Below, in pieces: positions 1 through 42,674 of a stretch of DNA of 64,000 nt (position 1 is its first letter; each line of letters starts with the position of its first letter). The stretch covers positions 587,346-651,345 of the forward strand of contig CAVQME010000001.1 of assembly GCA_963713545.1 (NCBI GenBank), written 5' to 3'. Both the position numbers and the translations under genes were made by a program. The notes beneath the pieces were generated by a model. The model had not been told where the DNA came from. It did not search any database and saw only the letters and a list, made by a program, of their open reading frames with translations. This DNA is from an uncultured Actinomycetes bacterium. Its GTDB lineage: Bacteria; Actinomycetota; Thermoleophilia; RBG-16-64-13.

Positions 1-180
1 TGGCAGTCACCTCGATACCGGGCTGCGCCGCCTTGAGACCGAGAGCCAGGTCGAGAGCCCGAGCGCTTCCGGGATCGGTCTCCCGCACCAGCCACTCTTC
101 GCGCACGCGCCCGCTGCGCGGGTCGCGCTCCGGAGGGATACGCACATCCGCGCCCAGCTCCAGGAAGACGACCACCTTCA
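1..180 (-). CDS. etfB: Electron transfer flavoprotein beta subunit EtfB/FixA (N-terminal 60 aa; gene runs off the left window edge)
   Basis: The reverse-strand ATG at ~178-180 gives MKVVVFLELGADVRIPPERDPRSGRVREEWLVRETDPGSARALDLALGLKAAQPGIEVTA, a typical EtfB N-terminus. The gene lies downstream of fixX on the same strand. It is not in the ORF track because it is truncated. Confidence 0.7.
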
Positions 181-250
181 TCGGCCTGGTCCGCGAGCGG
201 ACGCCGGCAAGGCGTGCGCCCCGGCGGCCATCGGAGCCGCCGGCCGAAGA

Positions 251-526
251 CTACGTGAGGCGGAAGCGCACACCATACCCTCCCTGGGGGTAGTGCCAGT
301 CGAGAGCTTCACGGTCGCATAGGAGCAGGCAGGTCCCGCATTCGAGACAGGCCTCATACGCGAACTCCACCCGGGCCCGTTCCTCGCTCCAGGTATAGCA
401 GCGAGCCGGACAGGCAAACGTGCAGGCCCGATGCGTGCAACTCTGACACACGTCCGCGTTCAGCCGGATGTGCGCCTCGGGGTGGATCCGGTAGCTCACC
501 AGATCAAACAGTTCGTCCACTACCAA
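251..526 (-). CDS. fixX: Ferredoxin-like protein FixX
   Basis: 91 aa with a Cys-rich 4Fe-4S ferredoxin-like pattern (CQSCTHRACTFACPARC ... CLECGTCLLLC). It overlaps the end of fixC by 7 nt. Confidence 0.8.
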   Translation of the reverse strand: MVVDELFDLVSYRIHPEAHIRLNADVCQSCTHRACTFACPARCYTWSEERARVEFAYEACLECGTCLLLCDREALDWHYPQGGYGVRFRLT

Positions 527-1989
527 AGGAACGCCCTCCCTCCTTGGAACAGATCAGCCAGGAGCTGCCGCATCGTCAGCTCGTCCTTCACTGCCCGACG
601 GCCCAGACGGCCGATCTTCTCTTTGGGGTCGCCGTCAGAACGATAGAGGTCCTCCATGAGCGCGCTCACCACCCGGGGATAGACCGTGAACAGACGGTCC
701 TCGTGTAGGAAATCGATGGCCCGGCCGAAGGTGGCAAGATCGCGCAGGACGAAGCTCTTCTTGAGCTCCTCCCCGTATCCTCCGAGGCGGGACGCGGAGA
801 CGTCGCCGTCAGCCAGCGCTGCTGCCCCGACCTGAGCGGCCACCAGACCCGAGGTCATGGCCAAGTTCATCCCTTCCTGGGTCAGGCCGTTCGTGTAGCA
901 GAAGCCGGCGGCGTCGCCCGCGACCAGGAGCCCCCCCGTAGATAGTTGCGGGATCATGCGCAACCCCGCTTCCGGGAGCAGATGGGCCGAGTATTCGATC
1001 AAGCGGGCCCCCCGAAGCAACGAAGCCACCGGGCTCGAGGCCACAAAGCGCTCCAGCAGTTCGTAGGGCGGGATACCCCGGGTCTTCAGAGAGTCGAGGT
1101 GCATCACCAGACCGACGGAGAGGGTCTCGGTCTGGGTGTAGATGAAGCCCCCGCCGCGGATGCCCTCCGTGCAGCCAAGGAACTCCTGTGTGGCCCCTTC
1201 CCGGCCGACCAGGCCGAAGCGCTCATTGATCTCTTCCTCGGTCAGGCGGTAGAGAGCCCGGACCCCAAGCGCTACCTGTTCGGGTTTGAAGCCCCCGTGC
1301 AGCCCGGCCTCCTGGGCGAGGAACGAAAGCGTCCCATCGCAGGCGATTACCAGAGGAGCCTCGACCATATCGTCGAGCCCCGCCACCCACACTCCCTGCA
1401 CGGTTCCGGCGCGCTTCACGAGGCCTTCCGCCCGGCAGCCGGTGAGCAGGGTCACGCCCTCTTCGACAGCGCGCTCCGCGTACCAGCGATCAAAATGGGG
1501 GCGGAACAGGGTGAAGCCGGTCAGGGTACGGTCGGAGGTCGAGCCGGCGCCCGCCGCGGGTCGGTCGGAATCGGAGTTGGCCTGGAAGACAAGAGAGGTG
1601 GAGGAGCTCTCGCCCATTAGTGAGAGCACCCGCTTGTTGACGGCCCGCTCCCAGGGCGCCCGCTCCCAGAACCCTGGCACCAGCTCCTCCGGGACCGGAC
1701 AGTAGGCCATCATCCCACCAAACATGTTCTTGGCCCCGGGGTACTCACCCCGCTCGAGGAGAAGGACCTTAGCCCCCTTCTGCGCTAGGCCCAGGGCCGC
1801 GCTGGTGCCGGCCGGGCCGGCCCCGACCACGATGGCGTCGAAGCCGCTGGGGATGGAGGCAGCGGATACAGCCGCTCCAGGAGCCGGGGCGCCGCGGGCA
1901 GGGGCGCCGCGAACCGTGGCGCCGCCGACCGTCGCCTCAGCGCCGGCGGCCACGCTGCTAGCGGGGCTCTTCGGGCCCGACGGGGGCAT
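520..1989 (-). CDS. fixC: ETF-quinone oxidoreductase FixC (FAD-dependent)
   Basis: FAD-binding GxGxxG (IVVGAGPAGTSAALGLAQKGAKVLLLERG) and full-length similarity to the FixC/ETF-QO family. The ~55-aa Ala/Gly-rich N-terminal extension suggests the true start is an internal GTG near 1953. Confidence 0.8.
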   Translation of the reverse strand: MPPSGPKSPASSVAAGAEATVGGATVRGAPARGAPAPGAAVSAASIPSGFDAIVVGAGPAGTSAALGLAQKGAKVLLLERGEYPGAKNMFGGMMAYCPVPEELVPGFWERAPWERAVNKRVLSLMGESSSTSLVFQANSDSDRPAAGAGSTSDRTLTGFTLFRPHFDRWYAERAVEEGVTLLTGCRAEGLVKRAGTVQGVWVAGLDDMVEAPLVIACDGTLSFLAQEAGLHGGFKPEQVALGVRALYRLTEEEINERFGLVGREGATQEFLGCTEGIRGGGFIYTQTETLSVGLVMHLDSLKTRGIPPYELLERFVASSPVASLLRGARLIEYSAHLLPEAGLRMIPQLSTGGLLVAGDAAGFCYTNGLTQEGMNLAMTSGLVAAQVGAAALADGDVSASRLGGYGEELKKSFVLRDLATFGRAIDFLHEDRLFTVYPRVVSALMEDLYRSDGDPKEKIGRLGRRAVKDELTMRQLLADLFQGGRAFLW

Positions 1990-3019
1990 CCCGCCACTCC
2001 TTGATCTTCGAAACGAGCGCCGGCAATACCGCCTCCAGGTCGGCTACATAGCCGACATCGGAGAACTGGAAGATGGGAGCCCGCGCGTCTCGGTTGATGG
2101 AGAGAACCCGGTCGGCCTTCTGCACCCCGGCCATGTGGTGAGGCGAGCCCGAGATACCGAGGGCGAGGTACAGCTCGGGAGTGACCGTCTTGCCAGTCTG
2201 GCCGATGAGCCGCTCTTTGGGGAGACGGCCATCGTCGACCACGGGCCGGGTCGCCCCCACCGAGCCCGCGAGGAGGTCAGCGAGTTCCCGCGCGGCGGCC
2301 AGAAGGTCGTCGCTCGCGCTGCCCGAGCCGGCGGCCACGATGCGTTTGGCATGGGCCAGGTCTACGGTCCGCGGGTCCGGTGGGATGGTCTCGAGATGAC
2401 GAACGCGCGGGTGCTGATCTGGCGCCCCGGATGCGTCCTGCGCCGGGCCCTCGATCTCCAGGACTTCCAGAATAGGCAGGCCGTCTGGGAAAGAGTCCGA
2501 CTCATCCATTCCCGTGAGGTCGAGAGTCGCCACCGGAATGAAGCCGGCCTGGGGTTCGATCTCCTGCTCGAGCCAGCCGCCGTAGACCGGCTTCACAAAC
2601 ACGAGGGAACCTCCTCGCACCTGCAGGTCGCTGCAACTAACCACCGCCCCGGAGCCCAGCCGGTGCGCCAGCAGGGGCGCGAGCTCGCGGCAGACATCGG
2701 TGTCGGCCATCACCACGGCCACCGGCTTCGCGTGCTCCACGAAGGCCGCCAGAGCCGTCGCGACCACCTCCGGGTCGATCTCGACCCCGGCTCGCCATGT
2801 GACGAATCGGGGCGTCGCGCCCAGCTCGCGAGCCAGACGCACGCCCTCGGCGAGAATGACCGTGCCTCCCGTTACCGTGGCCTCTCCAGCGCCGCGTTCC
2901 TTCTCCCGGGGCTCGACCACCACCAGGAGGGCGCGCGCGCCGCCCACGTCGGCGCCGCTCGTCGAGGCAGCCGCGGCGGCCGCCGGCGTGGGCGTCACCC
3001 TATCCGCCGCCCCGCTCAC
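1958..3019 (-). CDS. etfA: Electron transfer flavoprotein alpha subunit EtfA/FixB
   Basis: C-terminal FAD-binding signature LYLALGISGSPHHMAGVQKADRVLSIN. The GTG start overlaps the TGA of the upstream oxidoreductase (GTGA). Confidence 0.85.
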   Translation of the reverse strand: MSGAADRVTPTPAAAAAASTSGADVGGARALLVVVEPREKERGAGEATVTGGTVILAEGVRLARELGATPRFVTWRAGVEIDPEVVATALAAFVEHAKPVAVVMADTDVCRELAPLLAHRLGSGAVVSCSDLQVRGGSLVFVKPVYGGWLEQEIEPQAGFIPVATLDLTGMDESDSFPDGLPILEVLEIEGPAQDASGAPDQHPRVRHLETIPPDPRTVDLAHAKRIVAAGSGSASDDLLAAARELADLLAGSVGATRPVVDDGRLPKERLIGQTGKTVTPELYLALGISGSPHHMAGVQKADRVLSINRDARAPIFQFSDVGYVADLEAVLPALVSKIKEWRDAPVGPEEPR

Positions 3020-4965
3020 ACGCGCTTCCCGGCCATATAGCCTTCGTGGATGGCCATATCCACCTTGCGGGGGGCCACGCAGTCGCCGATGCGGTAGAGC
3101 TCGGACACCTTGCCCTTAAGGGCGAAGTAGAGGTCCTCGCAGGCGTCGTTCCCCATGGCGGTGACGATGCTGTCGTATCCGGAGAAGACGTCCCAGACAT
3201 TGGAATAGACGTTGAAGCCGTGCACCTCCAGACCCTTGATCTCCATGACGGCGAAGTCGGGCGTGAAGGTCACCCCCTTCTGGAGCAACCGCTGTCGGGT
3301 GAGGTACAGATCCTGGGACGGCCCCAGGTCGGATCCCACGAAGAGGCTCGAGGTGACCACGTGCACGGTCTTGCCCAATTCGGCCAGGAACTCGGCGGTG
3401 GCTGTTGCCTGGTGGTGACCGTCATAATCGATGAGAAGCACCCTTTCGCCCAACTCCGCCTCGCCCCTTAGGACCTGCCACACGTTGAAGACCCCCGGGC
3501 CGTCGGCGCCCGCCACCGGGCTCGTTTTGGGGCGCGATCCCGTGGCCACGATCACCGCGTCCGGCTCCCGCTCGAAGATGAACTCCGGCGTGACCTCCAC
3601 GCCCAGTTCCACCGGTACCCCCAGATGGGCGAGTTGGTTGCGCTCGTTGCGGACGATCACCCCGAACTCATCTCGGCCTGCGCCCTTCGCCGCCAGGAGC
3701 ACCTGGCCGCCCAGCTCCCCGGCCTGCTCATAGAGGGTCGCTTGGTGCCCCCGCAGAGTGGCGATCTTGGCCGCCCACATGCCTGCCGGACCACCGCCCA
3801 CGACCATGACCCGCTTTTTCCTCAGAGCCGGGCGCAGATGGCGCTCACCTTCAATGTCCTCGCAACCCACCGACGGGTTCTGCACGCAGCCGATCGTCTT
3901 GTTGAGACCCACCCGGCCGTAGCAGTTCTGGTTGCAGGCGATGCAGTAGCGGATCTCTTCGGTTCGGCCCTCCCGGGCTTTGCGGGCAAAATCGGGGTCG
4001 GCGATCTGCCCGCGGACCACCCCGATCATGTCGGCCTGCCCCTCGGCGAGTACCCGTTCCGCGAGGGCCGGGTCGTTGATGCGCCCGGTGGCGAAGACCG
4101 GGAGTGTCGCCACCTCCTTGATGCCGGCGGCCAGCGGGACCGCATAGCCCAGCGGCATGTGCATGGGACCCCCGACCAGATAGAGGTTGTAGAAGGTGGC
4201 GAGGGTCAAGTTGAAGTAGTCCAGGTGCCCGGTCGCTTGAAGGCGCTGGGCGATCTGTTTCGCGTCCTCAAGGGTGAGGCCCCCGGGGATGAGCTCGTCG
4301 GCGCACAGGCGCACTCCCAGGGTATAGTCGGCCCCCACCGCTTCTCTCACCGCGGCGATCACTTCGAGAGCGAAGCGAAGCCGATTATCGAACTCCCCCC
4401 CGTATTCGTCGCCGCGGTAGTTGGTGAGCGGCGACATGAACTGGCGGACCAGCGAGCTGTGCCCGAACTGTAGCTCCACTCCGTCGAAGCCACCCTCGCG
4501 CACGTGGGTCGCCGACCGGGCGAAGTACTCCACCACTTCCCGGATGTCTTCGATCTCCATGGCCTTGGGGGTCTCCCGGTAGAGCACGTCCGGCACGGGG
4601 GACGGTGCCCACACCGGCAGACGAGAGAGGCTACCGCTGCACTGCTGCCCGTTGTGGTTGAGCTGGGCGAAGATGCGCGTCTCGAACGCGTGCACCGCCT
4701 GCGTGAGCCGCTTGTAGCCGGGGATGACCTCCGGGTGGAACGCCTCGATCAGGTGCTCGTAGGCCCGGTCGGTGGGATGGACCGACTGCTCCTCGGTGAT
4801 GATCAGGCCCGCCCCGCCCCGAGCGCGGGCGGCCAGGTAGCCCGTCAGCCGGTCGGTGGGCAGCCCGTCGTCCGCCAGGTTGGTGAGATGGGCGGAGAAG
4901 GAGATGCGGTTGGGCACCGTCACCCGCCCGATCTCCAGGGGGCTGAAGAGGTGGGGGAACTGCAT
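3016..4965 (-). CDS. FadH/OYE-family Fe-S flavoprotein (2,4-dienoyl-CoA reductase / trimethylamine dehydrogenase-like), mycofactocin-system-associated oxidoreductase
   Basis: 649 aa. It has an N-terminal OYE TIM-barrel FMN domain, a CxxCxxC...C [4Fe-4S] motif (CIACNQNCYGRVGLNKTIGCVQNPSVGC) and a C-terminal FAD/NAD(P) domain (VMVVGGGPAGMWAA). The gene immediately follows mftC with an RBS inside the mftC 3' end. Confidence 0.8.
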   Translation of the reverse strand: MQFPHLFSPLEIGRVTVPNRISFSAHLTNLADDGLPTDRLTGYLAARARGGAGLIITEEQSVHPTDRAYEHLIEAFHPEVIPGYKRLTQAVHAFETRIFAQLNHNGQQCSGSLSRLPVWAPSPVPDVLYRETPKAMEIEDIREVVEYFARSATHVREGGFDGVELQFGHSSLVRQFMSPLTNYRGDEYGGEFDNRLRFALEVIAAVREAVGADYTLGVRLCADELIPGGLTLEDAKQIAQRLQATGHLDYFNLTLATFYNLYLVGGPMHMPLGYAVPLAAGIKEVATLPVFATGRINDPALAERVLAEGQADMIGVVRGQIADPDFARKAREGRTEEIRYCIACNQNCYGRVGLNKTIGCVQNPSVGCEDIEGERHLRPALRKKRVMVVGGGPAGMWAAKIATLRGHQATLYEQAGELGGQVLLAAKGAGRDEFGVIVRNERNQLAHLGVPVELGVEVTPEFIFEREPDAVIVATGSRPKTSPVAGADGPGVFNVWQVLRGEAELGERVLLIDYDGHHQATATAEFLAELGKTVHVVTSSLFVGSDLGPSQDLYLTRQRLLQKGVTFTPDFAVMEIKGLEVHGFNVYSNVWDVFSGYDSIVTAMGNDACEDLYFALKGKVSELYRIGDCVAPRKVDMAIHEGYMAGKRV

Positions 4966-4969
4966 GGAC

Positions 4970-6070
4970 TTAAGCTACCTCCTTCGCGGGCACCAGCGTG
5001 GCGGCCGTCGCCGCGCGCAGGCACTCCGGGTCGGGCTGGTCCAGGGACTGGGTGAGGAAGTACGCTACCGCCGGGCAGCCGCCGTGGCAGACGGAGAAGC
5101 GGTCGCAGATGCGGCACGAGTCGACCTCGAGCTCCCGAAACCGCTGGAGCACCGGCGACGATTGGAAGATCTTCTCGAAAGGCTCGAGCGTCACGTTGCC
5201 GGCGAGAAACGCGGGATGGCAGAGGAAGGCACAGGGATAGACGCCGCCATCCGGCGCAACGGCGCAGGTCATCTTGGCCGCGCCGCACATGTCCAACCCC
5301 AGAGTCCGGCGGCTCTGCGGAGTGAGTGAGAAGAACGAGTCGCCGGTCAGGATCTCCGGGTGGTCTCCGAGGAAGCTGGAAAGCGCAAGAAGCTGGTCCC
5401 GGGTCAAGCGGTAGTCCTCCCAGCTCGCGCAGCCGGCTCCGGAGGGGCGGAAACGCGAGAGCCGGGTTTTGGCCCCGTAGCGGCGGGCGAGCCGATCGAA
5501 GTCGGCGATCTCGCCGGCGTTCGGGCGGGTGACCACCATGTTCAGGCTGAAGTCGGGGTAGTCCCGTTCGGCGAGAAGCTCGACGCCGGCGAGGATGCGG
5601 GCGAAGGTCCCGGCCCCCCGGATGCCGTCGTTGGTCTCGGCGCAGGCGCCGTCCAGGCTCACCTGCAGGTAGACGGGCGCCATCCTCAGCAGCTCATCGA
5701 CGAGAGAGTCGGCGAGCACCGTCCCGTTGGTGCTGACGCAGGTGGTGATGCCCTGGGAGTGGCAGTAGGCGAGGATGTCGAGAAAGTCGTCCCGCAGGAA
5801 AGGCTCCCCGCCTCCGAAGTTGATCTGGAAGATCTCCATGCGGGCCAGCTCGTCGATGAGCGCCCGGCATTGCTGAAGGTCGAGCGCACCCCCGCCCCGG
5901 CCGAGAGGGTCGTCGCTCCGCAACCCGTTCCCGCCCGGCGTTTCGCCGCCAAGTCCAGCGCGCACTCCGGCAGAGAGGCAGTGGGTGCAGCGGAGGTTAC
6001 ACGCCTGGGTGATCTCCCACGTGACGTTGACCGGCGCGCGAAGGGGGGTGCTACTCAGCCTGTGTGGCAA
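4970..6070 (-). CDS. mftC: Mycofactocin radical SAM maturase MftC (radical SAM + SPASM)
   Basis: CxxxCxxC radical SAM motif (TQACNLRCTHC) and a Cys-rich C-terminal SPASM domain. It directly follows mftB with overlap. Confidence 0.85.
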   Translation of the reverse strand: MPHRLSSTPLRAPVNVTWEITQACNLRCTHCLSAGVRAGLGGETPGGNGLRSDDPLGRGGGALDLQQCRALIDELARMEIFQINFGGGEPFLRDDFLDILAYCHSQGITTCVSTNGTVLADSLVDELLRMAPVYLQVSLDGACAETNDGIRGAGTFARILAGVELLAERDYPDFSLNMVVTRPNAGEIADFDRLARRYGAKTRLSRFRPSGAGCASWEDYRLTRDQLLALSSFLGDHPEILTGDSFFSLTPQSRRTLGLDMCGAAKMTCAVAPDGGVYPCAFLCHPAFLAGNVTLEPFEKIFQSSPVLQRFRELEVDSCRICDRFSVCHGGCPAVAYFLTQSLDQPDPECLRAATAATLVPAKEVA

Positions 6071-6338
6071 CGATCAGGCCCCTATCGACAAGGTTCTCAA
6101 GCAGTCGCCTTACTGCCGCACGCCGGCCACCCCGGAGCGCCCCTACGTGGAGAACACGGTCCGGTCCGGCGAAAGGCGGGGGCGTTAGAGCGTCGCCGGA
6201 GCGCACGAACGTCAGCTTGGTGGAGCGGGTGTCGTAGAAGAGCAGCCCGAAGCTTTCGCGTCGCACCCGGACCCAGTCCGGTACGAGATACGTGGTCGCT
6301 GGCAGCAGATCGAACCCGGCGTCGTCAGTAGACGCCAC
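6051..6338 (-). CDS. mftB: Mycofactocin precursor-binding chaperone MftB (PqqD/RRE family)
   Basis: 95 aa with the RRESFGLL motif, corresponding to the MftB 'RPExFGAL' signature. It overlaps the end of mftA and the start of mftC. Confidence 0.8.
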   Translation of the reverse strand: MASTDDAGFDLLPATTYLVPDWVRVRRESFGLLFYDTRSTKLTFVRSGDALTPPPFAGPDRVLHVGALRGGRRAAVRRLLENLVDRGLIVATQAE

Positions 6339-6450
6339 AGATCCCGTCCACGGCCAGGTCTTCGACCTCGATCTCTTCGAGGACCAGCGGCTCCTCGGGA
6401 GGGGCCGGGCATGGGGTGGCGGCTAGGACATCATCGCTTCTGGCATACAT
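6325..6450 (-). CDS. mftA: Mycofactocin precursor peptide MftA
   Basis: MYARSDDVLAATPCPAPPEEPLVLEEIEVEDLAVDGICGVY ends in the hallmark ...DG(M/I)CGVY-COOH. A GGAGGG RBS lies upstream. This is an internal start within the ORF-track entry 6325..6513. Confidence 0.8.
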   Translation of the reverse strand: MYARSDDVLAATPCPAPPEEPLVLEEIEVEDLAVDGICGVY

Positions 6451-6484: not shown

Positions 6485-7594
6485 TCAGTCCCATTCACAG
6501 ACCCAGCGCCCACCGAGTTGACGCCGCTCCATCTTCTCGGCGATTTCGTTGATATCCTCGAGCTTGAACTTGCCCGCGATTATCTTGTCCAGTTTCATCT
6601 CCCCGGTCATGGCCAAATCGATCAGCTTGGGTATGTCGTCTTTGGTGGAGATAGAACCGTAGAGCCCTCCGATCATCGCCTTCTGCTGCAGAGCCATGAA
6701 GGTCAGGGGCATGGGGGCCACCTGATCCTGGGGCATGATCCCGACGACCATGAGGCGACCGGCCATCCCAAGGGCCCACCAGGCCTGCACCAGAGCACCT
6801 GGGTCCCCGCTGCACTCGAAGATGAAATTCGCCCCCCCGCCGGTCAACTCTTGGACGATGGGCACGGGATCCTCGGTCGAGTTGCAGATGAAGTGGGTAG
6901 CCCCCAACTCGAGGGCGATCTCACGCCGGGACTCCTCTAGGTCCACGGCGATGAGAGGATTGGCTTGGCGCATCTTCGCCGCCCGGAGCGTGTTCTGGCC
7001 AACGCCCCCCAGCCCCCACACGGCTACCTTGTCCCCGGGCTGGACGTTGGCCAGCTTGGTCACCGTCCCCCAGCCCGTGGGAACGCAGCAGCTCATCAAG
7101 GCGCCCCATTCGAGCGGCACGTCCTTGCGCAGTGGGACGAGGGAATCTTCAGGGACCACGGTGTAGTCCGAGAAGCCGGACACGAAGTTGCCGTGCAGGA
7201 CCGGGTTGCCCTTGGCATCCCTCATGCGGGTGGTGCCGTCGAGCATGGTGCCCCCTACGAAGTACTGGAAGTTGCCTGAGCATACGTTGCCCAGACCACG
7301 ACGGCACTCGGGGCAATCACCGCAGGGGCACATCCAGGCGCTCGCGACATGATCGCCCACCTTGACCCGGGTCACGCCCTCGCCGATGGCCTGGACCACC
7401 CCGGCGCACTCGTGACCGGCCACCATCGGCAGAGCCATATAGATCCGGCCCTTGAGATTGCTGAGGTCGCTGTGGCAGTAGCCCGTGTACTGGTACTTGA
7501 CGAGAGCTTCGCCGGCCTTCGGCGGATCGAGTTCCAGTTCTTCGATGCTGTAACCCTTGTTGACTTCGCGCAGGATAGCGGCCCTGATCTTCAC
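6485..7594 (-). CDS. Zn-dependent alcohol dehydrogenase, NDMA-dependent / mycofactocin-associated (Rxyl_3153-type)
   Basis: 369-aa MDR-family ADH with GHECAG, GDHV, catalytic Zn Cys/His and the GLGGVG NAD motif. It is encoded immediately 5' of mftA on the same strand. Confidence 0.8.
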   Translation of the reverse strand: MKIRAAILREVNKGYSIEELELDPPKAGEALVKYQYTGYCHSDLSNLKGRIYMALPMVAGHECAGVVQAIGEGVTRVKVGDHVASAWMCPCGDCPECRRGLGNVCSGNFQYFVGGTMLDGTTRMRDAKGNPVLHGNFVSGFSDYTVVPEDSLVPLRKDVPLEWGALMSCCVPTGWGTVTKLANVQPGDKVAVWGLGGVGQNTLRAAKMRQANPLIAVDLEESRREIALELGATHFICNSTEDPVPIVQELTGGGANFIFECSGDPGALVQAWWALGMAGRLMVVGIMPQDQVAPMPLTFMALQQKAMIGGLYGSISTKDDIPKLIDLAMTGEMKLDKIIAGKFKLEDINEIAEKMERRQLGGRWVCEWD

Positions 7595-7822: not shown

Positions 7823-8194
7823 TCACCGGCGGCGGCGCCTTAGGCGCCGCGCCTCTCCTACCCGGAGGGTCAACCCTTCAGAATCCATGTGTTCCAGGAG
7901 CGCCTGCGCATACCGGCGGGAGGTGCCAAGCAGATCCCGGGCTTCAGCCAGGGTCAGCTGATCCGCCTCCTCCATGGCCGTTACCAGCCGGCCGATCAGA
8001 TCGTCCAGGCGCTCCGGTGGATAGTAGAGGTCTTCGCCCACCTTGACCAACCGGCCCTGACGCACCAAGGCGTCGACGATCCTCTTCGCGTCGCGCACAA
8101 CGAGTCCCGCCGCGGCGGCCGCCACGGTCACGCTCGGAGTCTCGGCGGCGCGTTCGGCGCTATCACCGTCGTGAACTGCGCCAGCAGGCTCTCG
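7823..8194 (-). CDS. selB: SelB C-terminal winged-helix fragment (frame-shifted continuation of selB)
   Basis: Only the last ~110 aa of ORF 7823..9064 look protein-like (GLVVRDAKRIVDALVRQGRLVKVGEDLYY...TSRRYAQALLEHMDSEGLTLRVGEARRL). The Arg-rich N-terminal part of that ORF is out-of-frame junk. Confidence 0.55.
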   Translation of the reverse strand, partial: REPAGAVHDGDSAERAAETPSVTVAAAAAGLVVRDAKRIVDALVRQGRLVKVGEDLYYPPERLDDLIGRLVTAMEEADQLTLAEARDLLGTSRRYAQALLEHMDSEGLTLRVGEARRLRRRRR

Positions 8195-9876
8195 ATCGCT
8201 CCCGCCTGCACATCGTCGGGCATTGCGGCGGCCCCAGCCCAGCGGAAGCCGTGCTCCGTTCGGACAACCTCCCCAGCCGTCTGCAGTCTCTCGAGGGCCG
8301 CGTCCAGGGCGAGCCATTCCTTGCCGCCGGACAGCTCTCTCCGCAACTCGCCCAAGGTCAGATAAGGATTCAGCGCATCGGTGGCAGCCCGCTCGCGCAG
8401 AGCCGTGAGGGCGACGTCGGTCAAGGCCAATAGCGAAGGCCCGTGGAATAAGCGAAGGTTGGCCGCCGTCGGTTCCGCCGCAGGTTCCGCCGCCGCCCCA
8501 GCCACGGTCTGGGCCCCGGGTGACCGTGCCGCGCCGTGCTGGTGGCGACAACCGCGGCCGCGGCCGTCCGCCAGCAGGCCGTTTACGGCCGCGCCGATCT
8601 CCGTTCGGCCGAATCGCCACAGATAGGGACTGTCCTCCAGTCTCCGGCGCGTGAGGGCCGATGGGAACGATTCTTCGAGCAACAAGGCGGCGATGAGGTC
8701 CGGTGGTCCTTCCTCCAGCAAGGCCAGGCGGTCGTGCCATCGAGGTCCGGTGCCGTGCTTGTGCGGCGCGGGATCGATCACTCGGCCCCCGCCAACGGTG
8801 GCGACAGGAGTCACCGAGCGCACGATGAACTGGTCTCCGGGATAAACAAGAGCGCGCTCCTCGAACCGCACCTGCGCATAGCAGGAGTCCCCGGGCTCCA
8901 GAGAATCGCGGTCGGCAAGCACGAATTTGGCAAGGATCTCCGCCGTGCCGTGGTCCACCCGCGCGCGTGAGACGCGGGGCACGGGGCCGGGTGCCTCCGG
9001 CAGCAGAGTCAACCGCACATCGGCCAGGTAGGTCGGCTCGATGACAGGGTCCTTCACCACCCATTGCCCGCGATCGAGCTCATCACGGTCGACCCCGGTC
9101 AGACTGAGCGCAACCCGCTGCCCACCGGCAGCCGCTGCCACCTCACGATCGTGTACCTGGACGCTCCTCACCCGCACCTCCCGCAGCTCGGCCGGACCCC
9201 GGGCGGTCCGGGGAGGGAGGATCGCGACCGTGTCTTCGGCGCTGAGACTCCCAGACCACAGCGTGCCGGTGACGACCGTGCCGATGCCCTTGAGGGAGAA
9301 GACCCGGTCTATGGGCATACGGGTGGCTGGGTATGCGGGGCGCGGCGGTACCGCCGCGCCCAGACGGTCGAGAGTAGCCACCAGTTCAGGCAACCCGTCG
9401 CCGGTCACGCCGCTCACCAGCACTATGGGAGCATCACCGTAGGGGGTAGCGGCGAGTAGGTCCTCCACGTCGGCCCGAGCCAGTTCGGCCAGGTCGGGAT
9501 CGACCATGTCGATCTTGGTGAGGGCGACCATCCCAGAGGGGATACCGAGCAGTTCGATGATGTGCAAGTGCTCACGGGTCTGCGGCATGACCCCGTCGTC
9601 GGCCGCCACCACCAGCATGAACAGGTCGATGCCCGTGGCGCCGGCCACCATGGTCTTGACGAAGCGCTCGTGCCCCGGTACGTCTACCACGCTCAGATGC
9701 CGGCCGCTCGGCAGCACCAGTTCGGCGAAGCCTAATTCGATGCTGATGCCCCGGGTCTTCTCCTCCTTGAGCCGATCGGTATCCCGGCCGGTCAAGGCTT
9801 TGACGAGGGTGGTCTTGCCGTGATCGATGTGCCCGGCGGTACCCAGGGTCAGAGGGACGCACGGCTCCCCCCGCAT
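8128..9876 (-). CDS. selB: Selenocysteine-specific elongation factor SelB (frameshifted; C-terminal WH domains continue in another frame to 7823)
   Basis: The G-domain [11 protein letters not shown]...DVPGHERF...TKID is followed by EF-Tu-like domains II/III and winged-helix repeats. The last ~110 aa, including the SECIS-binding WH4 (LTLAEARDLLGTSRRYAQALLEHMDSEGLTLRVGEARRL), are found in the frame of ORF 7823..9064. Confidence 0.8.
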
Positions 9877-9882
9877 CCGCAG

Positions 9883-11448
9883 TCACAGTACCGCCCCGGG
9901 CAACGATCGGCCGGCGTCACCAACCGCCATACCCACCAGCCGCTCGATGGCCCAGACGACGCTCTCGGCCGCAGGCTCGACCTCGCTCTCGGCCAGAGTC
10001 AGCACGTCCAGATGGAGACTGTCTTGGGACACGCGGGCCACCACGGGGATGGGGGCCCGGCGCAGGAGCGCTTCGAGCGCCGAGACCGTGGGGACTACCG
10101 CCCGTGTAGCTCCCGTATCCGCGGCCGCCGCCGACCCTCCGGGACCTCCGGCCACTCCCGCCGGCCGGGCAGATCCCCCTTGTGCTCCGCTCTGGACCGG
10201 TTGTTCCGGGAACCTGATGCGGACGGCATGCGAAGGCAGTTCCACCAGAGGCATCGAGCCGCCGCCGGCCCGAGCGCTCGACTCTTCCACTTCGAGAATG
10301 AAGCCGTCGCCGCAACGCCGCTCGATGGCCGCCTGCAGAGCCGCGGCCAGCGCGCCCGTCTCCGCCGCGGTCCGGCTGAGGTAGCGCAGTGTCGGGATCT
10401 CCTCGCGGGCCCTCTTGGGATCCTGATAGAGGCGAAGGGTCGCCTCCAAAGCCGCCAGCGTCATCTTATCCAGCCGCAGGGCGCGCGCCACCGGGTGTTT
10501 CCGCAGTCGGTCGATCACGTCGGCGCTGCCGAGCAGGATCCCGGCCTGGGGTCCCCCCAACAGCTTGTCCCCGCTGAAACAGACGACGTCCACGCCCGTC
10601 CGCAGCGACGCCGCCACCGATGGCTCTCCAGAGAACGCGTCGAGCTCGTAGAGCGCTCCACTGCCCAGGTCGTCGGCGACCGGCACTCCCCGGCGGCGGC
10701 CTAGATCCACCAATTCGGCCAGATCGGCTTCCTCGACGAAGCCAAGGATCCGATAGTTCGAGGTATGCACCCGCAGCAGCAAGGCGGTATCAGCCGTGAT
10801 GGCGGCTTCGTAGTCCGATATCCGGGTGCGATTGGTGGTCCCCACTTCCACGAGGCGGACGCTTCCGGCCCGCATGATCTCGGGCAGCCGGAAGGACCCG
10901 CCGATCTCGACCAATTGTCCCCTCGAGACGAGGACCTCCCGCCCCGAGGCCAGCGCCATCAGGAGGAGCAGCATCGCCCCTGCGTTGTTGTTGACCGCGA
11001 AGGCGGCTTCCGCCCCGGTCAGCCGAGTGAGCAGGGTCTCGACATGGATTTCCCGCCGGCCGCGTGTGCCTTCCTCGAGATCGTACTCCAGGTTGCTGTA
11101 CGAACGGGCCACTTCGACCACGCGCTCCACCGCGGCTTCGGCCAGGCAAGAACGGCCCAGGTTGGTGTGGACCACCACCCCGCTCAGGTCCAAGACCCGC
11201 CGCAGGCCGGGCTCAGCCCACGACTCCAGGATGACGGTCATCTCCGCCACGATCTTTTCCGGCGCGCCAGCGCCGCTCGTCGTCTCGCCCGCGATGATCG
11301 CCTGCCGGGCCGCTTCCACCGCCGCCCGAGCCGCCTCCACCACCTGTAGCCGCGGGTAGCGCTCCAGGAGCGCGAGCGCCGCCGGCCGGCTCGTCAGTTC
11401 CTCTACCGACGGGAGATCGCGCAGTGCCTTCTGCCTCGTGTCGTCCAT
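9883..11448 (-). CDS. selA: L-seryl-tRNA(Sec) selenium transferase SelA
   Basis: PLP-dependent SelA family with conserved blocks NLEYDLEEGTRGRR, VNNNAGAMLL and FSGDKLLGGPQAG. The likely start is MDDTRQKAL at 11448. The gene ends 7 nt before selB. Confidence 0.8.
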   Translation of the reverse strand: MDDTRQKALRDLPSVEELTSRPAALALLERYPRLQVVEAARAAVEAARQAIIAGETTSGAGAPEKIVAEMTVILESWAEPGLRRVLDLSGVVVHTNLGRSCLAEAAVERVVEVARSYSNLEYDLEEGTRGRREIHVETLLTRLTGAEAAFAVNNNAGAMLLLLMALASGREVLVSRGQLVEIGGSFRLPEIMRAGSVRLVEVGTTNRTRISDYEAAITADTALLLRVHTSNYRILGFVEEADLAELVDLGRRRGVPVADDLGSGALYELDAFSGEPSVAASLRTGVDVVCFSGDKLLGGPQAGILLGSADVIDRLRKHPVARALRLDKMTLAALEATLRLYQDPKRAREEIPTLRYLSRTAAETGALAAALQAAIERRCGDGFILEVEESSARAGGGSMPLVELPSHAVRIRFPEQPVQSGAQGGSARPAGVAGGPGGSAAAADTGATRAVVPTVSALEALLRRAPIPVVARVSQDSLHLDVLTLAESEVEPAAESVVWAIERLVGMAVGDAGRSLPGAVL

Positions 11449-11513
11449 CTCCGCCTCCTTCAAGACGCCGACGCCCGGTGAGGCCCCCTGGGTGCGTCCC
11501 TCGCTCCCCGCTC

Positions 11514-12536
11514 CTACTTCTCCCGTTCCAGGAAGAAGTCTGCCATCGACTCGAGGACATCGCGGGCAGGTGAGACGCGTAGACCGGCGAGACATTCCCG
11601 CGCCTCGCCGATGAGCGCCCGGGCTCGTGCCCGGGCGAAACCTATCGAGTCATACTTGTTCAGCAGCTCCAGCACCTCCGCGGCGTGGCCAAGGGTCTTG
11701 CCGTGCCCCAACCGCAGTATCTCGATCAGCCGTTCTCGGTCGGCCGGCTCGGCCACGGTGAGGCAATGGATCACCATGAGCGTCCGCTTGCTCTCGAGGA
11801 CGTCGGTGAGGTAGTCCTTGCCCATGGTGTCGACGTCGCCAAGGATGTTGAGAAGGTCGTCCTGTATCTGAAAAGCGATGGAGGAGCTCTTCCCAAAGCC
11901 TTCGAGCGCTTCTCTCTCGCTGTCCGTCGCCCCGCCGATGATCGCTCCCACCTTGACCGGAGCGATCCCGGAGTAGTAGCCGGTCTTGCCGAGCGCCATA
12001 CGCAGGTAATCGTCCAGAGTGAGCTCGTATACATCGTCCCGTACCCAGCCCACATCAAGGGCCTGACCCTCGACGGTGCGGGCGCTCATCTCGCCGATGA
12101 CGTCCAGGACAGCCAGCTTGGTGGCGTCGTCGAGCTGTGGATCGCGCACGACGATAGTGCACACCAGACCCAATGCATAGTCGCCGGCGTTGATGGCGAG
12201 GGGCACGCCGTGCAAGATATGCGCGCACTTCTGGCCGCGCCGCAGGAGACTCGCGTCCATGATGTCGTCGTGGATCAGAGCGGCCGCATGGAAGAACTCG
12301 ATCGCACACCCTGCGGATAGGGCCTTGCGCGGCTCGCCGCCCACCGCTTCGCACGCCACCATGGCCATCGCCGGTCGAGCCCGCTTGCCACCGCGGACTA
12401 TGAACTCGTCCAGGATGCCGTAGAGGTAGGTGTGAAGAGCACTGCCCTCGGGGACCCCGGCCAGGTAGGCGTGCAACCGCTCGTCGATAACGGGGGTGAC
12501 CGAGGTCAGATAGTCGATGAAGAGATCAACGCCCAT
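11514..12536 (-). CDS. Polyprenyl diphosphate synthase (geranylgeranyl/farnesyl diphosphate synthase family)
   Basis: First Asp-rich motif LIHDDIMD and second motif FQIQDDLLN in a trans-isoprenyl diphosphate synthase fold. The internal start MGVDLF is preferred. Confidence 0.8.
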   Translation of the reverse strand: MGVDLFIDYLTSVTPVIDERLHAYLAGVPEGSALHTYLYGILDEFIVRGGKRARPAMAMVACEAVGGEPRKALSAGCAIEFFHAAALIHDDIMDASLLRRGQKCAHILHGVPLAINAGDYALGLVCTIVVRDPQLDDATKLAVLDVIGEMSARTVEGQALDVGWVRDDVYELTLDDYLRMALGKTGYYSGIAPVKVGAIIGGATDSEREALEGFGKSSSIAFQIQDDLLNILGDVDTMGKDYLTDVLESKRTLMVIHCLTVAEPADRERLIEILRLGHGKTLGHAAEVLELLNKYDSIGFARARARALIGEARECLAGLRVSPARDVLESMADFFLEREK

Positions 12537-15623: not shown

Positions 15624-16400
15624 CTACCAGCCCCTTCTTGTGCGCCTACGCCAGGAGGGACGTCTCTGGGACGGCATGACCGCCGCCGGCCTACCTCCTG
15701 TCAGCACCATGCCTGGGTTGACACGGACGAGCATGTCCGCCTCCTCAGCGGACAGCATGCCGCGCAAGGTCCCTACGGCCGGGGCCAGCGTCCAGCTGGA
15801 GCGACGATGAGAATGGGCGTCTGACGCGATAAGGCTCATGTCTCCCCGGGAGAGGTGGCGATAGAACGCCTGCTTGCTGGCGCGGCCGAAGTCACCGTTC
15901 AGGCTGGCGGCAGTGCCCTGGGCCACTGCGCCCGCGTCCAGGCACTTGGTGAGCAGATCGGGAGTGCGCTGTATCCGGTCGTTTCGTTCGGGATGGGCGA
16001 GCACCGGCAGAAGGCCCTCCGTGCGCAGGCGAAAGACCGTCTCGACCGCGTATACCGGCCAGCCCCAATGGGGTACCTCGATAAGGAGAGCGCCCCCGCT
16101 TCCCTCGATCGCGAGTGGTTCGAGCTCCATCCTACCAAGCGTCGCTACTACGTCCAGGCTCACCTCGAAACCGAGCACAAGGTCCAACTCGATGCCGGCT
16201 TCGGTCATAGCCGTTCTGAGCGACTGGATCTCCTCCTGTGCCCTGCCGACGAACGAGAGATCCAACTCTCTCAAGTGGGGGGTGCAGACCACGATTGTGG
16301 TCCCCACAGCCATGGCCTCGGTGGCCATCTTCAGACTTGTCCGAAGGTCGGGAGAGCCGTCGTCCAGTCCAGGAAGAAGGTGGGAATGAGTGTCGATCAT
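15624..16400 (-). CDS. Protein-tyrosine phosphatase, CpsB/CapC (PHP-domain, YwqE-like)
   Basis: Begins MIDTHSHLLPGLDDG, the metal-binding PHP motif of CpsB-type Tyr phosphatases. 258 aa. Confidence 0.75.
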   Translation of the reverse strand: MIDTHSHLLPGLDDGSPDLRTSLKMATEAMAVGTTIVVCTPHLRELDLSFVGRAQEEIQSLRTAMTEAGIELDLVLGFEVSLDVVATLGRMELEPLAIEGSGGALLIEVPHWGWPVYAVETVFRLRTEGLLPVLAHPERNDRIQRTPDLLTKCLDAGAVAQGTAASLNGDFGRASKQAFYRHLSRGDMSLIASDAHSHRRSSWTLAPAVGTLRGMLSAEEADMLVRVNPGMVLTGGRPAAVMPSQRRPSWRRRTRRGW

Positions 16401-16563
16401 CCTGCAGGCGAGTCCTCCTCAAGATCCGGCCTCAACTAGTTAGGCCTCAGAGCCGAAAATTAGTACAGGAACCCGGGTGGGCTTCGGCCTGCTGCACGTT
16501 TCCATGCGAACGCGGGGCGGGCGGTTTGCCTTTCCCAGGGTTCCGCGTTAGCGGATAGTATAT

Positions 16564-18174: not shown

Positions 18175-19107
18175 AGCCTCGCGCAAGCCGCGAGTACGCG
18201 CGACTATCTCGGCACCATCGAGCCCGGCACGCCAGGCCACGAAGGCACATCGCTTCTCAAGATCGAGGGGTTGATCCCACATGGCGTCGCCGGCCAGGGT
18301 GGCGGCTCCCCCTCCTGCCTCCGTGAGGATCACCAGGCCGGCCGCCAGGTCGACCGAGCGAGACCGAACAGCTGCCACCAGGATGTCGGCCGCCCCTGTG
18401 GCCACGTAGCAGAGGGCAAGAGCCAGCGACCCGATCTGACGCACGCGCATGTCCTGACTTCGGCCCACGGCGCCCATGGCGCTCAGATCGTGGAACCGGA
18501 AGTGATGACGGTCGGGCCGACCAGCCTCGAGTAGGATCACTTCTACCAGAGCGTTCTTGAAACGCTGGGGATCGAGCGTCACCCCCGGCTCTCCGGCTGA
18601 GAGCACCCCCGATCCCTTGACTGCGCTGAATACGTTCGGCCGTAGGTAGTCCTCGATGTAGCCCACGCGGACATCACCCATATTCGGACCGTCGGCCACC
18701 CCGATGGAGACGCAGAAAGGCGAAAGGCCACGCTTGGCGTTGAGACTGCCGTCCACGGGATCGACCACCACCAGCCACTCCGCGTCGGAGGGGCCGCTGA
18801 TACCGGCTTCCTCGGACACCAAGCGACACGGGAACGGAGCCCGAGCGGCCAGAACGTCCTGGATAGCTTCCTCGCAGACACGATCGAGCTCGAGCGTGCG
18901 ATCGCCACCTGCCCCCCGCCCGAGGGCTACCCTACCGGGTGCTCTGCCAAAGAGGGGCTGGATCGCTTCCTTACCCGCAGACGCCATCTGCTCGACGCAT
19001 GAAAGCCACCGGGCGTCGGCCTCTGACATCGACCGGGTCGTCGGGGTGTCTTGCTCTGCTGGATCTGGCGTAGTCGAGCTCACACTGCCCAAAATACCAC
19101 CCATCAT
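18160..19107 (-). CDS. Inositol monophosphatase family protein (SuhB/ImpA-like)
   Basis: IMPase motifs VVVDPVDGSLN and WDxAAG-like AGLVILTEAGG. The long N-terminal part of ORF 18160..19437 is Arg/His-rich junk, so the internal start MMGG with a GGGGAG RBS is preferred. Confidence 0.65.
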   Translation of the reverse strand: MMGGILGSVSSTTPDPAEQDTPTTRSMSEADARWLSCVEQMASAGKEAIQPLFGRAPGRVALGRGAGGDRTLELDRVCEEAIQDVLAARAPFPCRLVSEEAGISGPSDAEWLVVVDPVDGSLNAKRGLSPFCVSIGVADGPNMGDVRVGYIEDYLRPNVFSAVKGSGVLSAGEPGVTLDPQRFKNALVEVILLEAGRPDRHHFRFHDLSAMGAVGRSQDMRVRQIGSLALALCYVATGAADILVAAVRSRSVDLAAGLVILTEAGGGAATLAGDAMWDQPLDLEKRCAFVAWRAGLDGAEIVARTRGLREALLYS

Positions 19108-23639: not shown

Positions 23640-23712
23640 GGGGGTATAGCTCAGTTGGGAGAGCGTCGCGTTCGCATCGCGAAGGCCAGGGGTTCGAATC
23701 CCCTTACCTCCA
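23640..23712 (+). tRNA. tRNA-Ala (anticodon CGC)
   Basis: Cloverleaf GGGGGUA/UA/GCUCAGUUGGGAGAGC/G/UCGCG-UUCGCAU-CGCGA/AGGCC/AGGGG-UUCGAAU-CCCCU/UACCUCC/A. It has the G3:U70 alanine identity pair and the T-loop GTTCGAATC. CCA is not encoded. A TATAAAT -10-like box lies at 23614-23620. Confidence 0.85.
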
Positions 23713-23748
23713 CTCCTTCCCTCCCTTGTCGGCCGTCCTCATGAAGGG

Positions 23749-25990: not shown

Positions 25991-27403
25991 GGCGCCGTGA
26001 TACGAAGCCTCCATCAAGGTGCCTTCCATGGTGGGAAGCTCGGTCCAGTAGGGAATGATCTCGAAGGCGCGGGGGGTGCCGAACTCGTCGATCTTGTCCC
26101 CGTGCTCCACCATCACCCGGCCCGGAGGGTCGAGCGTGGCTATGAACTGGTTGATGGAGTTGTATTGCTCCCAGTTGGTCTTGCCTTCGTAGCCGGAGTA
26201 GTTCCACCTGATCCAGCCTGCGGCGGTGGTGCTCGTCACTATGATCACCGCTCCCAGCACGATCGCGACCACTGGTACGTAGATCCTGCGGGCGTTGATC
26301 CCCCGCAACCGGAAGAGGTCGCGCATCATCACCGTGAAGGGACGGATCAGCCAGGTGGCGCCATATGCAGCCCAGAAGTGAAGCGACACATAGAAGAACG
26401 GCAGGATCCGGGCGTTCCACAGACGACCGTTCGGAAGCACCCAGAAGAGCACGAGGGTGATGAAGGTGATCCAGGCCAGCGGGAGCAGCTTCTTCTCCTT
26501 GCGGGCGACGGCATACGCCATCCCTATCAGGCCAAGGGTCGCGACGGGCAGCAGTTGTAGCGGCAATAGGTCGCCGAGCGAGTCCAGCTGGTCCCAGGCC
26601 ATGTGCGCCGTCCACTCCAGATTCGAGGCGAAAGGCAGCGACCAGAAAGCGGTCAAGCAGAAGCCCACCGCAGCCACCGCAGCCATGTAGCCAAGAGAAC
26701 GCCAGCGGGGGATCACGAGCAAGAGCCCGGGGATGATGCAGACCAGCGCGATGGTGGTCACGATGTGCGAGAGGACGAGAGCCATCAGAATCAGGCAGTT
26801 GAGGACGAAGAGCATGTTGAAATGAGGCTTCTCCATCCCCCGGTACATAGTGCCCAGGAATAGGAACACCAGGGCGAAGCTCAGCATGTAGCCGAATTCG
26901 CCCGCCAGCGTGCTGAGGATGTTCCCCCCGTAGATGGAGTAGCTCTCCATGAGCAGGAAGATCAACGCGAAGACGGCAGCAAAGATGGGGAAGGGACGCC
27001 GCACCCGCCACAGCCGACCCATCGCGTAGGCGGCTGCCGGCAGAGCGAAGACCCCCAATACGGTGCCGATCTTGAAGGCCACTTCGTAGGCCATGAACCA
27101 GTCCATGATAGCTATGAGCAAGAACGGGAAGGGGAAATAGAACGTCAGCATGGGCATGCCGGCGTACCAACCGGGCGCCCAGCCGGTCAAACGGAAATGG
27201 GGTAGCAGCTCCTGGATGAGGTACTGCGCGGGGTAGTGATGCGCGCCTGTGTCGCCGCCGGCGGTGGTAGTGATACTGAAGAGGAGGTTGGGCCGATAGA
27301 AGATGAGCAGGGTCGTATAGATCGCCAGGAATGCCAGCAGGGTGGGGACCCAGTCCCAGATGCTTCCCTTCTCGACCAGGTCCTCTCGCTTAGGGTCCAG
27401 CAT
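25913..27403 (-). CDS. Large polytopic membrane protein, N-terminal part (GT-C-like glycosyltransferase candidate; frameshifted)
   Basis: About 12 TM helices; a YfhO/GT-C-like topology is inferred. Together with the adjacent downstream ORF it forms a ~758-aa protein with a periplasmic C-terminal domain and a final TM helix. It lies in a GtrA / GT2 / membrane-GT cassette. Confidence 0.55.
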   Translation of the reverse strand: MLDPKREDLVEKGSIWDWVPTLLAFLAIYTTLLIFYRPNLLFSITTTAGGDTGAHHYPAQYLIQELLPHFRLTGWAPGWYAGMPMLTFYFPFPFLLIAIMDWFMAYEVAFKIGTVLGVFALPAAAYAMGRLWRVRRPFPIFAAVFALIFLLMESYSIYGGNILSTLAGEFGYMLSFALVFLFLGTMYRGMEKPHFNMLFVLNCLILMALVLSHIVTTIALVCIIPGLLLVIPRWRSLGYMAAVAAVGFCLTAFWSLPFASNLEWTAHMAWDQLDSLGDLLPLQLLPVATLGLIGMAYAVARKEKKLLPLAWITFITLVLFWVLPNGRLWNARILPFFYVSLHFWAAYGATWLIRPFTVMMRDLFRLRGINARRIYVPVVAIVLGAVIIVTSTTAAGWIRWNYSGYEGKTNWEQYNSINQFIATLDPPGRVMVEHGDKIDEFGTPRAFEIIPYWTELPTMEGTLMEASYHGALPLHQSGLSLQAAQQRHHRGHLPLA

Positions 27404-28208
27404 TCCCCTCCTTCCACAAGATCAGCCGTAACTGTAGCAGCCCCCACATGGTACGCGGTATGCGACGTACTATAGACGAACGCGGTTTCCTTTTCTCCTC
27501 CACCGTTACCGGCAGAGCCTTGACCCTTATACCACCGCGCCGGGCCCGGATGATGAGCTCTGTATCGAACAGATCCCGGGTCCTCACCGTTCGAGGGGCG
27601 TAGCGCTCGACTACCTCGCGGCGCAGAACCTTCATGCCATGAGTATCGTCCATGCGGGGGTCGAACAATAGCCTGAGGATAGTGGTGAAGCCCAGCGACA
27701 CCAGGTGACGGGCAGGCGAGCGCCGGTCCTCCGCGCCCTCTACGAGCTTGCTGCCGACCACCACCCCGGCCCCGGAGGCCGCCATCAGGTCGCCGGCGGC
27801 CAGCATGAAGCGGACGTCGTGGAAATCGATGTCGAAGTTGACGATCAGATCGCCCCGGCTGGCGAGCATCCCAGCCTTCATGGCGGCCCCGTAGTCCGGC
27901 ACAGGGACGCGGAGGACGCGAAGGCGAGGGTTTTCACGGGCCAATGTCTCAGCGATCGCAGGACATTCGTCGACGCTACCGTTCTCTGCCAGAAGTAGCT
28001 CGTAGTCGACCCCCCGAGCGTCCAACCCCCTCACGAGCTCGGCCACCTCGTCGGCGAGACACTCGGCCTCGTTGTGGATCGGGATGACTATGGAGTACTC
28101 GGGTGCTGCGCCCGGCTGCGGGCTTGGCGGCGGCGTCGCGCCCCCGGGCACGAGCGTCGCGCCCGACTCGCATCCGCGGCCGCGGTCCCGGCCGGCCGGC
28201 TCACTCAT
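27390..28208 (-). CDS. GT2 polyprenyl-phosphate glycosyltransferase (DPM1/GtrB-like)
   Basis: GT-A fold motifs (YSIVIPIHNEAE; the DxD-containing NFDIDFHD). Its ATG overlaps the gtrA-like stop (ATGAGTGA). Confidence 0.8.
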   Translation of the reverse strand: MSEPAGRDRGRGCESGATLVPGGATPPPSPQPGAAPEYSIVIPIHNEAECLADEVAELVRGLDARGVDYELLLAENGSVDECPAIAETLARENPRLRVLRVPVPDYGAAMKAGMLASRGDLIVNFDIDFHDVRFMLAAGDLMAASGAGVVVGSKLVEGAEDRRSPARHLVSLGFTTILRLLFDPRMDDTHGMKVLRREVVERYAPRTVRTRDLFDTELIIRARRGGIRVKALPVTVEEKRKPRSSIVRRIPRTMWGLLQLRLILWKEGNAGP

Positions 28209-41246: not shown

Positions 41247-41249
41247 CCC

Positions 41250-42653: not shown

Positions 42654-42674
42654 GACGGCTGAGATGAGGAGCCT

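Follow-up and report, generated by a model that had tools for sequence, protein, structure and literature searches.

A 64-kb stretch of DNA (hereafter the window; GC content 65%) was analyzed for genes for the biosynthesis of mycofactocin, a redox cofactor derived from a peptide, in particular for mftD, mftE and mftF, which a previous reading based on the sequence alone had reported absent from the neighbourhood of mftA, mftB and mftC. Gene calls were guided by the GC content of third codon positions (GC3), and protein families were assigned by scanning against NCBIfam or Pfam with curated cut-offs. The mft genes are part of an operon of nine open reading frames (ORFs), all on the minus strand, with the order ADH-mftA-mftB-mftC-OYE_2-EtfA-FixC-FixX-EtfB:

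6485..7594, minus strand: Zn-dependent alcohol dehydrogenase (ADH), first gene of the operon; best NCBIfam match TIGR03989 (NDMA-dependent ADH subfamily) at 323 bits, below the cut-off of 440
6325..6450, minus strand: mftA, precursor peptide of 41 aa; NF040489 at 39.4 bits (cut-off 30) and TIGR03969 at 26.3 bits (cut-off 25)
6051..6338, minus strand: mftB, leader-binding chaperone of 95 aa; TIGR03967 at 43.9 bits (cut-off 33)
4970..6070, minus strand: mftC, radical SAM/SPASM maturase of 366 aa; TIGR03962 at 333 bits (cut-off 265)
3016..4965, minus strand: OYE_2, flavoprotein of the FadH/OYE family with an FMN barrel, a 4Fe-4S motif and an FAD/NAD(P) domain; TIGR03997 at 953 bits (cut-off 793)
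1958..3019, minus strand: EtfA (FixB-like), alpha subunit of an electron transfer flavoprotein (ETF); best match NF038209 (mycofactocin-associated EtfA) at 141 bits, below the cut-off of 240
520..1989, minus strand: FixC-like FAD-dependent oxidoreductase of the ETF:quinone oxidoreductase type; NF007542 (FixC) at 307.7 bits, below the cut-off
251..526, minus strand: FixX-like ferredoxin; NF011993 (FixX) with E = 1.9e-12, below the cut-off
1..181, minus strand: EtfB, first 60 codons, truncated by the left window edge; 97% identity to the N-terminus of the 319-aa EtfB at locus L010, the closest relative

The genes are closely packed or overlapping and run on one strand from position 7594 down to base 1. 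Only 34 nt separate the ADH gene from mftA, mftB shares 14 nt with mftA and 20 nt with mftC, and the gap between mftC and OYE_2 is 4 nt. All nine ORFs are intact with a coding-type GC3 of 0.70–0.88. The scores of MftA, MftB and MftC above the NCBIfam cut-offs confirm the presence and placement of mftABC in the sequence-only reading, and the short gap together with the TIGR03997 score confirms that an OYE flavoprotein directly follows mftC. The OYE_2 protein contains a C-x2-C-x3-C-x11-C iron-sulfur motif and a GxGxxG dinucleotide-binding motif, and the nearest solved structures are those of 2-naphthoyl-CoA reductase (6QKG), 2,4-dienoyl-CoA reductase (1PS9), histamine dehydrogenase and trimethylamine dehydrogenase. 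The left edge of the window cuts the operon 4,969 bp downstream of mftC.

The mftA ORF (6450..6325, minus strand), which is preceded by a GGAGGG ribosome-binding site 5 nt upstream, reads MYARSDDVLAATPCPAPPEEPLVLEEIEVEDLAVDGICGVY and ends in VDGICGVY, in agreement with the length and core previously given for it. The D-G-x-C-G-V-Y end was invariant among 11 aligned MftA sequences. The variable position is occupied by Ile in the clade of the window, where ..DGICGVY is found throughout, in Desulfobacterota and in haloarchaea; by Val in Dehalococcoidales; and by Met in Mycobacteriales, Streptomyces, Thermomicrobium and Acidimicrobiales. A dedicated NCBIfam model, NF040489 ("variant-type mycofactocin precursor"), describes the variant MftA. 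The alignment indicates that Ile is the usual residue in the clade, at a position outside the Val-Tyr pair predicted to be modified by MftC, and the replacement of Met that had been taken as a departure from the norm is therefore not a peculiarity of this peptide. Nor is the leader longer than usual as had been proposed, since the 41 aa fall within the 30–55 aa of the annotated MftA genes fetched for comparison and the 34–78 aa of the predicted examples of Haft 2011. In MftC, the radical-SAM CxxxCxxC motif (CNLRCTHC) and the SPASM cysteines are conserved. Its nearest database relatives, 62–86% identical, are named MftC by their sources. A Gly-rich low-complexity insert of ~25 aa (residues ~33–60, window positions 5890–5975) directly follows the radical-SAM CxxxCxxC and is common to locus L002; it was not found in other relatives or in reference MftC proteins.

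A scan of one genome per species with the window MftC yielded 80 loci (L001–L080) with neighbourhoods of ±10 kb. Of these, 16 belong to uncultured Actinomycetota (carrying the labels Gaiellales, Thermoleophilia or RBG_16_64_13), 5 to Chloroflexota and 53 to metagenome-assembled genomes (MAGs) of Desulfobacterota and other non-actinobacterial groups. The MftC proteins of the 16 actinobacterial loci, in which several MAG genes are frameshifted, are 52–78% identical over the best aligned segment. All-against-all clustering of ORFs revealed the actinobacterial order ADH-mftA-mftB-mftC-OYE_2-EtfA-FixC-FixX followed by an EtfB of ~300 aa and then a protein of ~500 aa. The ADH gene precedes mftA in 15 of these 16 loci and EtfA follows OYE_2 in all 16. 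The ~500-aa protein matched the MftF model TIGR03965 with 358 bits in L010 and 311 bits in L001 (cut-off 280).

The window is collinear with L010 at 82–94% nucleotide identity up to window base 1, and the operon proteins are 76–97% identical: 91% for ADH, 97% for the FixX-like ferredoxin, and 96% over residues 124–489 and 87% over residues 38–123 for the FixC-like protein. In L010, the equivalent of window base 1 is position 16000, inside the EtfB gene (15820–16779), and the 60 residues encoded at 181..2 are those matching the N-terminus of this EtfB. The MftF gene of L010 follows at 16776–18320. Thirteen actinobacterial loci extend 9 kb or more downstream, and in every one of them MftF starts 5.7–7.1 kb after mftC. 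Since the window offers only 4,969 bp after mftC with the operon still running at that point, an absence of mftF from the neighbourhood is not shown; rather, the synteny in 13 of 13 loci and the collinearity with L010 place the expected mftF ~0.8–2.3 kb past the left edge. The missing mftF is thus expected to be an artefact of the window edge, with the gene predicted in the same operon.

Within the window, the scans of the ~54 coding ORFs returned no match to MftD (TIGR03966), MftE (TIGR03964) or MftF (TIGR03965). MftD is the FMN-dependent oxidase (PF01070) that acts on AHDP, the ring intermediate freed from the peptide; MftE is a peptidase of the creatininase family (PF02633), and MftF is a glycosyltransferase. 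Probes were taken from reference clusters of Tsukamurella (mftR-A-B-C-D-E-F-G), Mycolicibacterium chubuense, Thermomicrobium roseum, Haloterrigena, Streptomyces and Halolamina. The Acidimicrobiales loci L072–L074 had been considered as a source of reference MftD, MftE and MftF but have none nearby, and references were therefore drawn from annotated plasmids instead. Searches by tblastn with three MftD, two MftE and three MftF probes, MftG and MftM found nothing in the window at E <= 1e-3; the positive controls were recovered at E < 1e-88, and the Streptomyces MftE probe recovered plasmid creatininase-family genes at 33–37% identity. Profile hidden Markov models (HMMs) for MftD and for MftE/creatininase (five sequences), run with filters off on six-frame translations, gave no match in the window or the 80 loci; their positive controls were recovered at 295–789 bits (MftD 782–789; MftE/creatininase 295–412). 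Likewise, E. coli LldD and P. putida creatininase, validated first against PDB, matched nothing in the window or the 80 related loci. The only glycosyltransferase of the window (27390..28208, 272 aa) was evaluated as a displaced MftF and rejected: it is a generic family 2 glycosyltransferase (GT2) with no match to TIGR03965 and none by tblastn with the three MftF probes, and is found among unrelated genes at a distance of 21 kb. The previous observation that no mftD, mftE or mftF is visible in 64 kb is upheld by the scans and tblastn, and for MftD and MftE by the HMMs as well; the stronger claim that mftF is absent from the neighbourhood is not, the operon being cut 4,969 bp after mftC. Similarly, the proposal that later steps are encoded elsewhere holds for mftF only in the trivial sense that synteny places it in the same operon past the edge.

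The absence of mftD and mftE extends to the relatives. By tblastn, and for MftD and MftE also by the profile HMMs, neither of these genes nor MftG had a match in the 80 related loci or anywhere in the window, including its 58 kb beyond the other end of the operon. A relative of OYE_2 was found near mftC in 72–73 of the 80 loci, as opposed to none with MftD. Twelve mftC-bearing plasmids from PLSDB, including loci L081–L086, gave the same result in that four encode MftD and the other eight OYE_2, never both. This either/or distribution suggests a functional replacement of MftD by OYE_2.

The genes surrounding the operons were also inspected for substitutes. No peptidase was conserved in or beside the operon. 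The content after mftF in relatives is variable (Rieske protein, polysaccharide deacetylase, GT2, PAS sensor, DegV, a metallo-beta-lactamase-fold protein and histidine kinase) and was rejected as a source of a substitute peptidase or FMN dehydrogenase, none being convincing as an analogue of MftE or MftD. The same was concluded for the conserved neighbours in Desulfobacterota, which are aldehyde:ferredoxin oxidoreductase, Fe-dependent ADH, short-chain dehydrogenase/reductase (SDR), thiolase, hydroxyacyl-CoA dehydrogenase, a sigma-54 regulator and a cytochrome.

These results are consistent with previous reports on the distribution of the genes. Haft 2011 found MftA, MftB, MftC and MftF universal in mycofactocin systems at the species level but not MftD, MftE or MftR; MftD and MftE are single-copy, co-clustered when present and missing from some mycofactocin species. 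The description of mftABCDEF as the canonical cluster is correct for the Mycobacteriales type and does not extend to other systems. BGCFlow lists 17 Saccharopolyspora clusters without mftD and with TIGR03997, and S. erythraea makes both oxidized and reduced methylmycofactocins (MMFT-2, MMFT-2H2 and MMFT-3), indicating that an MftD-less cluster of this type is consistent with completion of a redox-active mycofactocin. Clusters without mftD thus represent an annotated subtype for which this trait is already known. That mftE is missing from the vicinity of the cluster is a real feature, shared across the clade within ±10 kb, and mildly unusual.

Comparison with annotated clusters further defines the subtype. 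Streptomyces plasmids (e.g. NZ_CP108009.1, annotated by PGAP) have the order mftABC-OYE_1-OYE_2-EtfA-FixC-FixX-EtfB-SDR-mftF-mftE with no mftD. Common to the window and these plasmids are mftABC, the TIGR03997 flavoprotein, an EtfA-FixC-FixX-EtfB order identical to that of NZ_CP108009.1, a subsequent mftF (in the window expected from synteny), and the lack of both mftD and mftG. The Streptomyces clusters additionally contain OYE_1 (TIGR03996), a mycofactocin-coupled SDR, mftE and an MftA ending in IDGMCGVY, whereas a single OYE gene, the Zn-ADH in front, VDGICGVY and no mftE within 10 kb characterize the window and its 16 actinobacterial relatives. The 17 Saccharopolyspora clusters resemble the window in having TIGR03997 and no mftD. 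The canonical mftR-mftABCDEF-mftG of Mycobacteriales (e.g. Tsukamurella NZ_LR134465.1) shares MftA, MftB, MftC and the DG-x-CGVY end with its Val-Tyr core and, by synteny, MftF; in contrast to that type, the window is without MftD, MftE, MftG and MftR and has OYE_2, ETF and FixCX instead, and its MftC is only ~39% identical to the Mycobacteriales-type protein.

More distant clusters show further variations of the arrangement. The haloarchaeal plasmids Haloterrigena pHTUR01 and Halolamina pCBA1230-01 encode an MftA ending in IDGICGVY, lack mftD, and contain an OYE-like-EtfA-FixC-FixX-EtfB block as in the window beside mftE-A-B2-C-F; unlike the window, an MftE or creatininase-family gene adjoins mftA, the chaperone is of the MftB2 type and SDR genes are numerous. 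Desulfobacterota and Dehalococcoidales belonging to the same MftC clade (L012–L069) have a variant MftA (..IDGICGVY or ..IDGVCGVY), OYE_2 after mftC, EtfA and EtfB, and a terminal mftF, again with no mftD or mftE. Four Desulfobacterota loci (L016, L031, L034 and L057) differ from the window in having two OYE genes and in a multihaem cytochrome c-like protein and an HdrD/TfrB-like Fe-S protein that replace FixC and FixX between EtfA and EtfB (15979–20699 in L016); in L016 and L031 EtfB is followed by another radical SAM gene, which is MftC-like but divergent (140 bits, cut-off 265). Two loci, L018 and L030, contain a second copy of mftA. In the Acidimicrobiales MAGs L072–L074, a canonical MftA ending in ..IDGMCGVY and MftC are followed by an ABC transporter, with no MftD, MftE, MftF or OYE_2 within ±10 kb; these may be true split or reduced clusters.

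Overall, the results from the family searches combined with synteny indicate, with a probability of about 85%, that the window contains the first nine genes of an MftD-less mycofactocin operon of the OYE/ETF subtype from an uncultured Thermoleophilia- or Gaiellales-like actinobacterium, with mftF past the edge as placed by synteny. What is new is a further cluster of this kind, the type itself being already annotated. Several points weigh against this interpretation. The position of mftF is extrapolated from relatives, the gene itself not having been seen in the source genome; the left-end 61-mer had no exact match in metagenome contigs, and the window MftC and OYE_2 had no exact protein match. 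EtfA, EtfB, FixC, FixX and ADH all score under the curated cut-offs of mycofactocin-specific or named models, including the full-length EtfB proteins of L010 and L001 (TIGR04503, mycofactocin-associated EtfB, 79–82 bits against a cut-off of 200), and thus their link to mycofactocin derives from conserved context. The negative results for mftD and mftE reach ±10 kb of mftC and the window, and unlinked copies may lie beyond. Finally, the solved structures nearest to OYE_2 are those of CoA-thioester reductases, and the roles of OYE_2 and ETF are deduced indirectly.

An unlikely alternative is a split cluster with the standard pathway, mftD, mftE or both being located at another site in the genome, at a distance of more than 10 kb from mftC. 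Both a peptidase that sets AHDP free and an oxidase that generates the keto-amide are needed for the standard chemistry, and the searches of related loci covered ±10 kb around mftC. There are precedents for displaced or missing genes in T. roseum, where mftD is found across an ADH gene and no mftE is seen within 9 kb, and in the Acidimicrobiales loci with mftA and mftC. This explanation is at odds with the finding that neither gene is present within ±10 kb in 80 of 80 loci from three phyla, nor in the other 58 kb of the window. It is also difficult to reconcile with the single-copy and co-clustered occurrence of MftD and MftE, and their absence from some mycofactocin species, described by Haft 2011, and with the one-for-one replacement of MftD by OYE_2 in all 12 plasmid records.

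Quite improbable is a different end product, for example glycosylated AHDP or an uncleaved modified peptide, with no keto-amide redox cofactor. The operon is conserved without an MftE-like or MftD-like gene and no other peptidase is conserved beside it, and in the established pathway an uncleaved Gly-Val bond leaves no amine to oxidize. However, an operon of redox enzymes (ADH, OYE_2, ETF and FixCX) fits a redox-active product, mftF is kept throughout the clade, and S. erythraea makes oxidized and reduced methylmycofactocins in spite of the Saccharopolyspora clusters without mftD. The last result also weakens the previous suggestion that this lineage stops at a different intermediate. Decay of the cluster, with mftDEF lost and mftABC a functionless remnant, can be dismissed as extremely improbable: partial loss of mft genes does occur, as in Herbiconiux sp. 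L3-i23, but the nine ORFs are intact with coding-type GC3 and 76–97% protein identity to L010, and the gene order is conserved among the 16 actinobacterial genomes and, for the majority of genes, in Desulfobacterota and Chloroflexota as well. Since mftF appears to be missing only because of the window edge and MftD-less OYE/ETF clusters are known to yield mycofactocins, the interpretation of the locus as a truncated or divergent pathway fails.

Immediately upstream of the operon, the window contains selB and selA for selenocysteine incorporation (8128–11595, minus strand); synteny of selB extends to L003, L009, L010 and L068. ARAGORN detected no tRNA-Sec in the window, the sole tRNA being tRNA-Ala (23640–23713). 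A B12-dependent ribonucleotide reductase, NrdJ (50558–53974, minus strand), of 1138 aa is encoded with NrdR directly upstream (53971–54432). Residues ~315–616 of NrdJ match intein-containing GyrA, RecA and DnaB models, and the protein thus probably contains an intein. A three-gene block at 40113–44954 on the plus strand, encoding a MoxR-type AAA ATPase, a DUF58 protein and a transglutaminase-like TgpA, has no relation to the mycofactocin operon.

A pathway can be proposed for the MftD-less operon of the OYE/ETF subtype. MftB would present the leader of MftA to MftC, which is predicted to decarboxylate Tyr41 and cross-link it to Val40, all motifs being present and the G-V-Y end of the substrate invariant. 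The product would then be glycosylated by the MftF expected just outside the window. With mftD and mftE apparently not part of the cluster type in this clade, removal of the leader would proceed via an unlinked or unrelated peptidase, and the oxidation performed elsewhere by MftD may be accomplished by the OYE_2/ETF module or another enzyme. The conserved context suggests that the Zn-ADH is a cofactor-dependent dehydrogenase, a probable mycofactocin-coupled enzyme, and that OYE_2-EtfAB-FixCX could connect the cofactor with the quinone or ferredoxin pool by electron transfer, a role served by MftG in mycobacteria. The family of OYE_2 includes amine dehydrogenases, and trimethylamine dehydrogenase uses ETF as the electron acceptor. 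The either/or pattern of MftD and OYE_2 allows the speculation that OYE_2 with ETF oxidizes AHDP in place of MftD.

The biochemistry of mycofactocin has been worked out almost wholly in Mycobacteriales. No experimental test of keto-amide formation, release or coupling to the electron transport chain in MftD-less clusters was found in the literature, and apart from Haft 2011, BGCFlow and the papers on MftM and MftG, literature searches on ETF/OYE-type or anaerobe mycofactocin systems yielded nothing of relevance. The MftG paper reports that ~25% of genomes with mftC are without MftG and leaves its replacement open. The strict pattern of MftD or OYE_2 provides OYE_2 as a concrete candidate enzyme and also explains the mislabelling of such clusters by rule-based tools that require TIGR03966 (BGCFlow). 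It is conceivable, although doubtful at present, that the whole clade of Thermoleophilia-like actinobacteria, Desulfobacterota and Dehalococcoidales makes a mycofactocin-type cofactor without MftD or MftE anywhere in the genome. If so, the leader would be cut by a peptidase other than a creatininase, or else the product would be unlike known mycofactocins; OYE_2 with ETF as acceptor would oxidize AHDP independently of oxygen, in the manner of trimethylamine dehydrogenase, and might also re-oxidize the cofactor in place of MftG.

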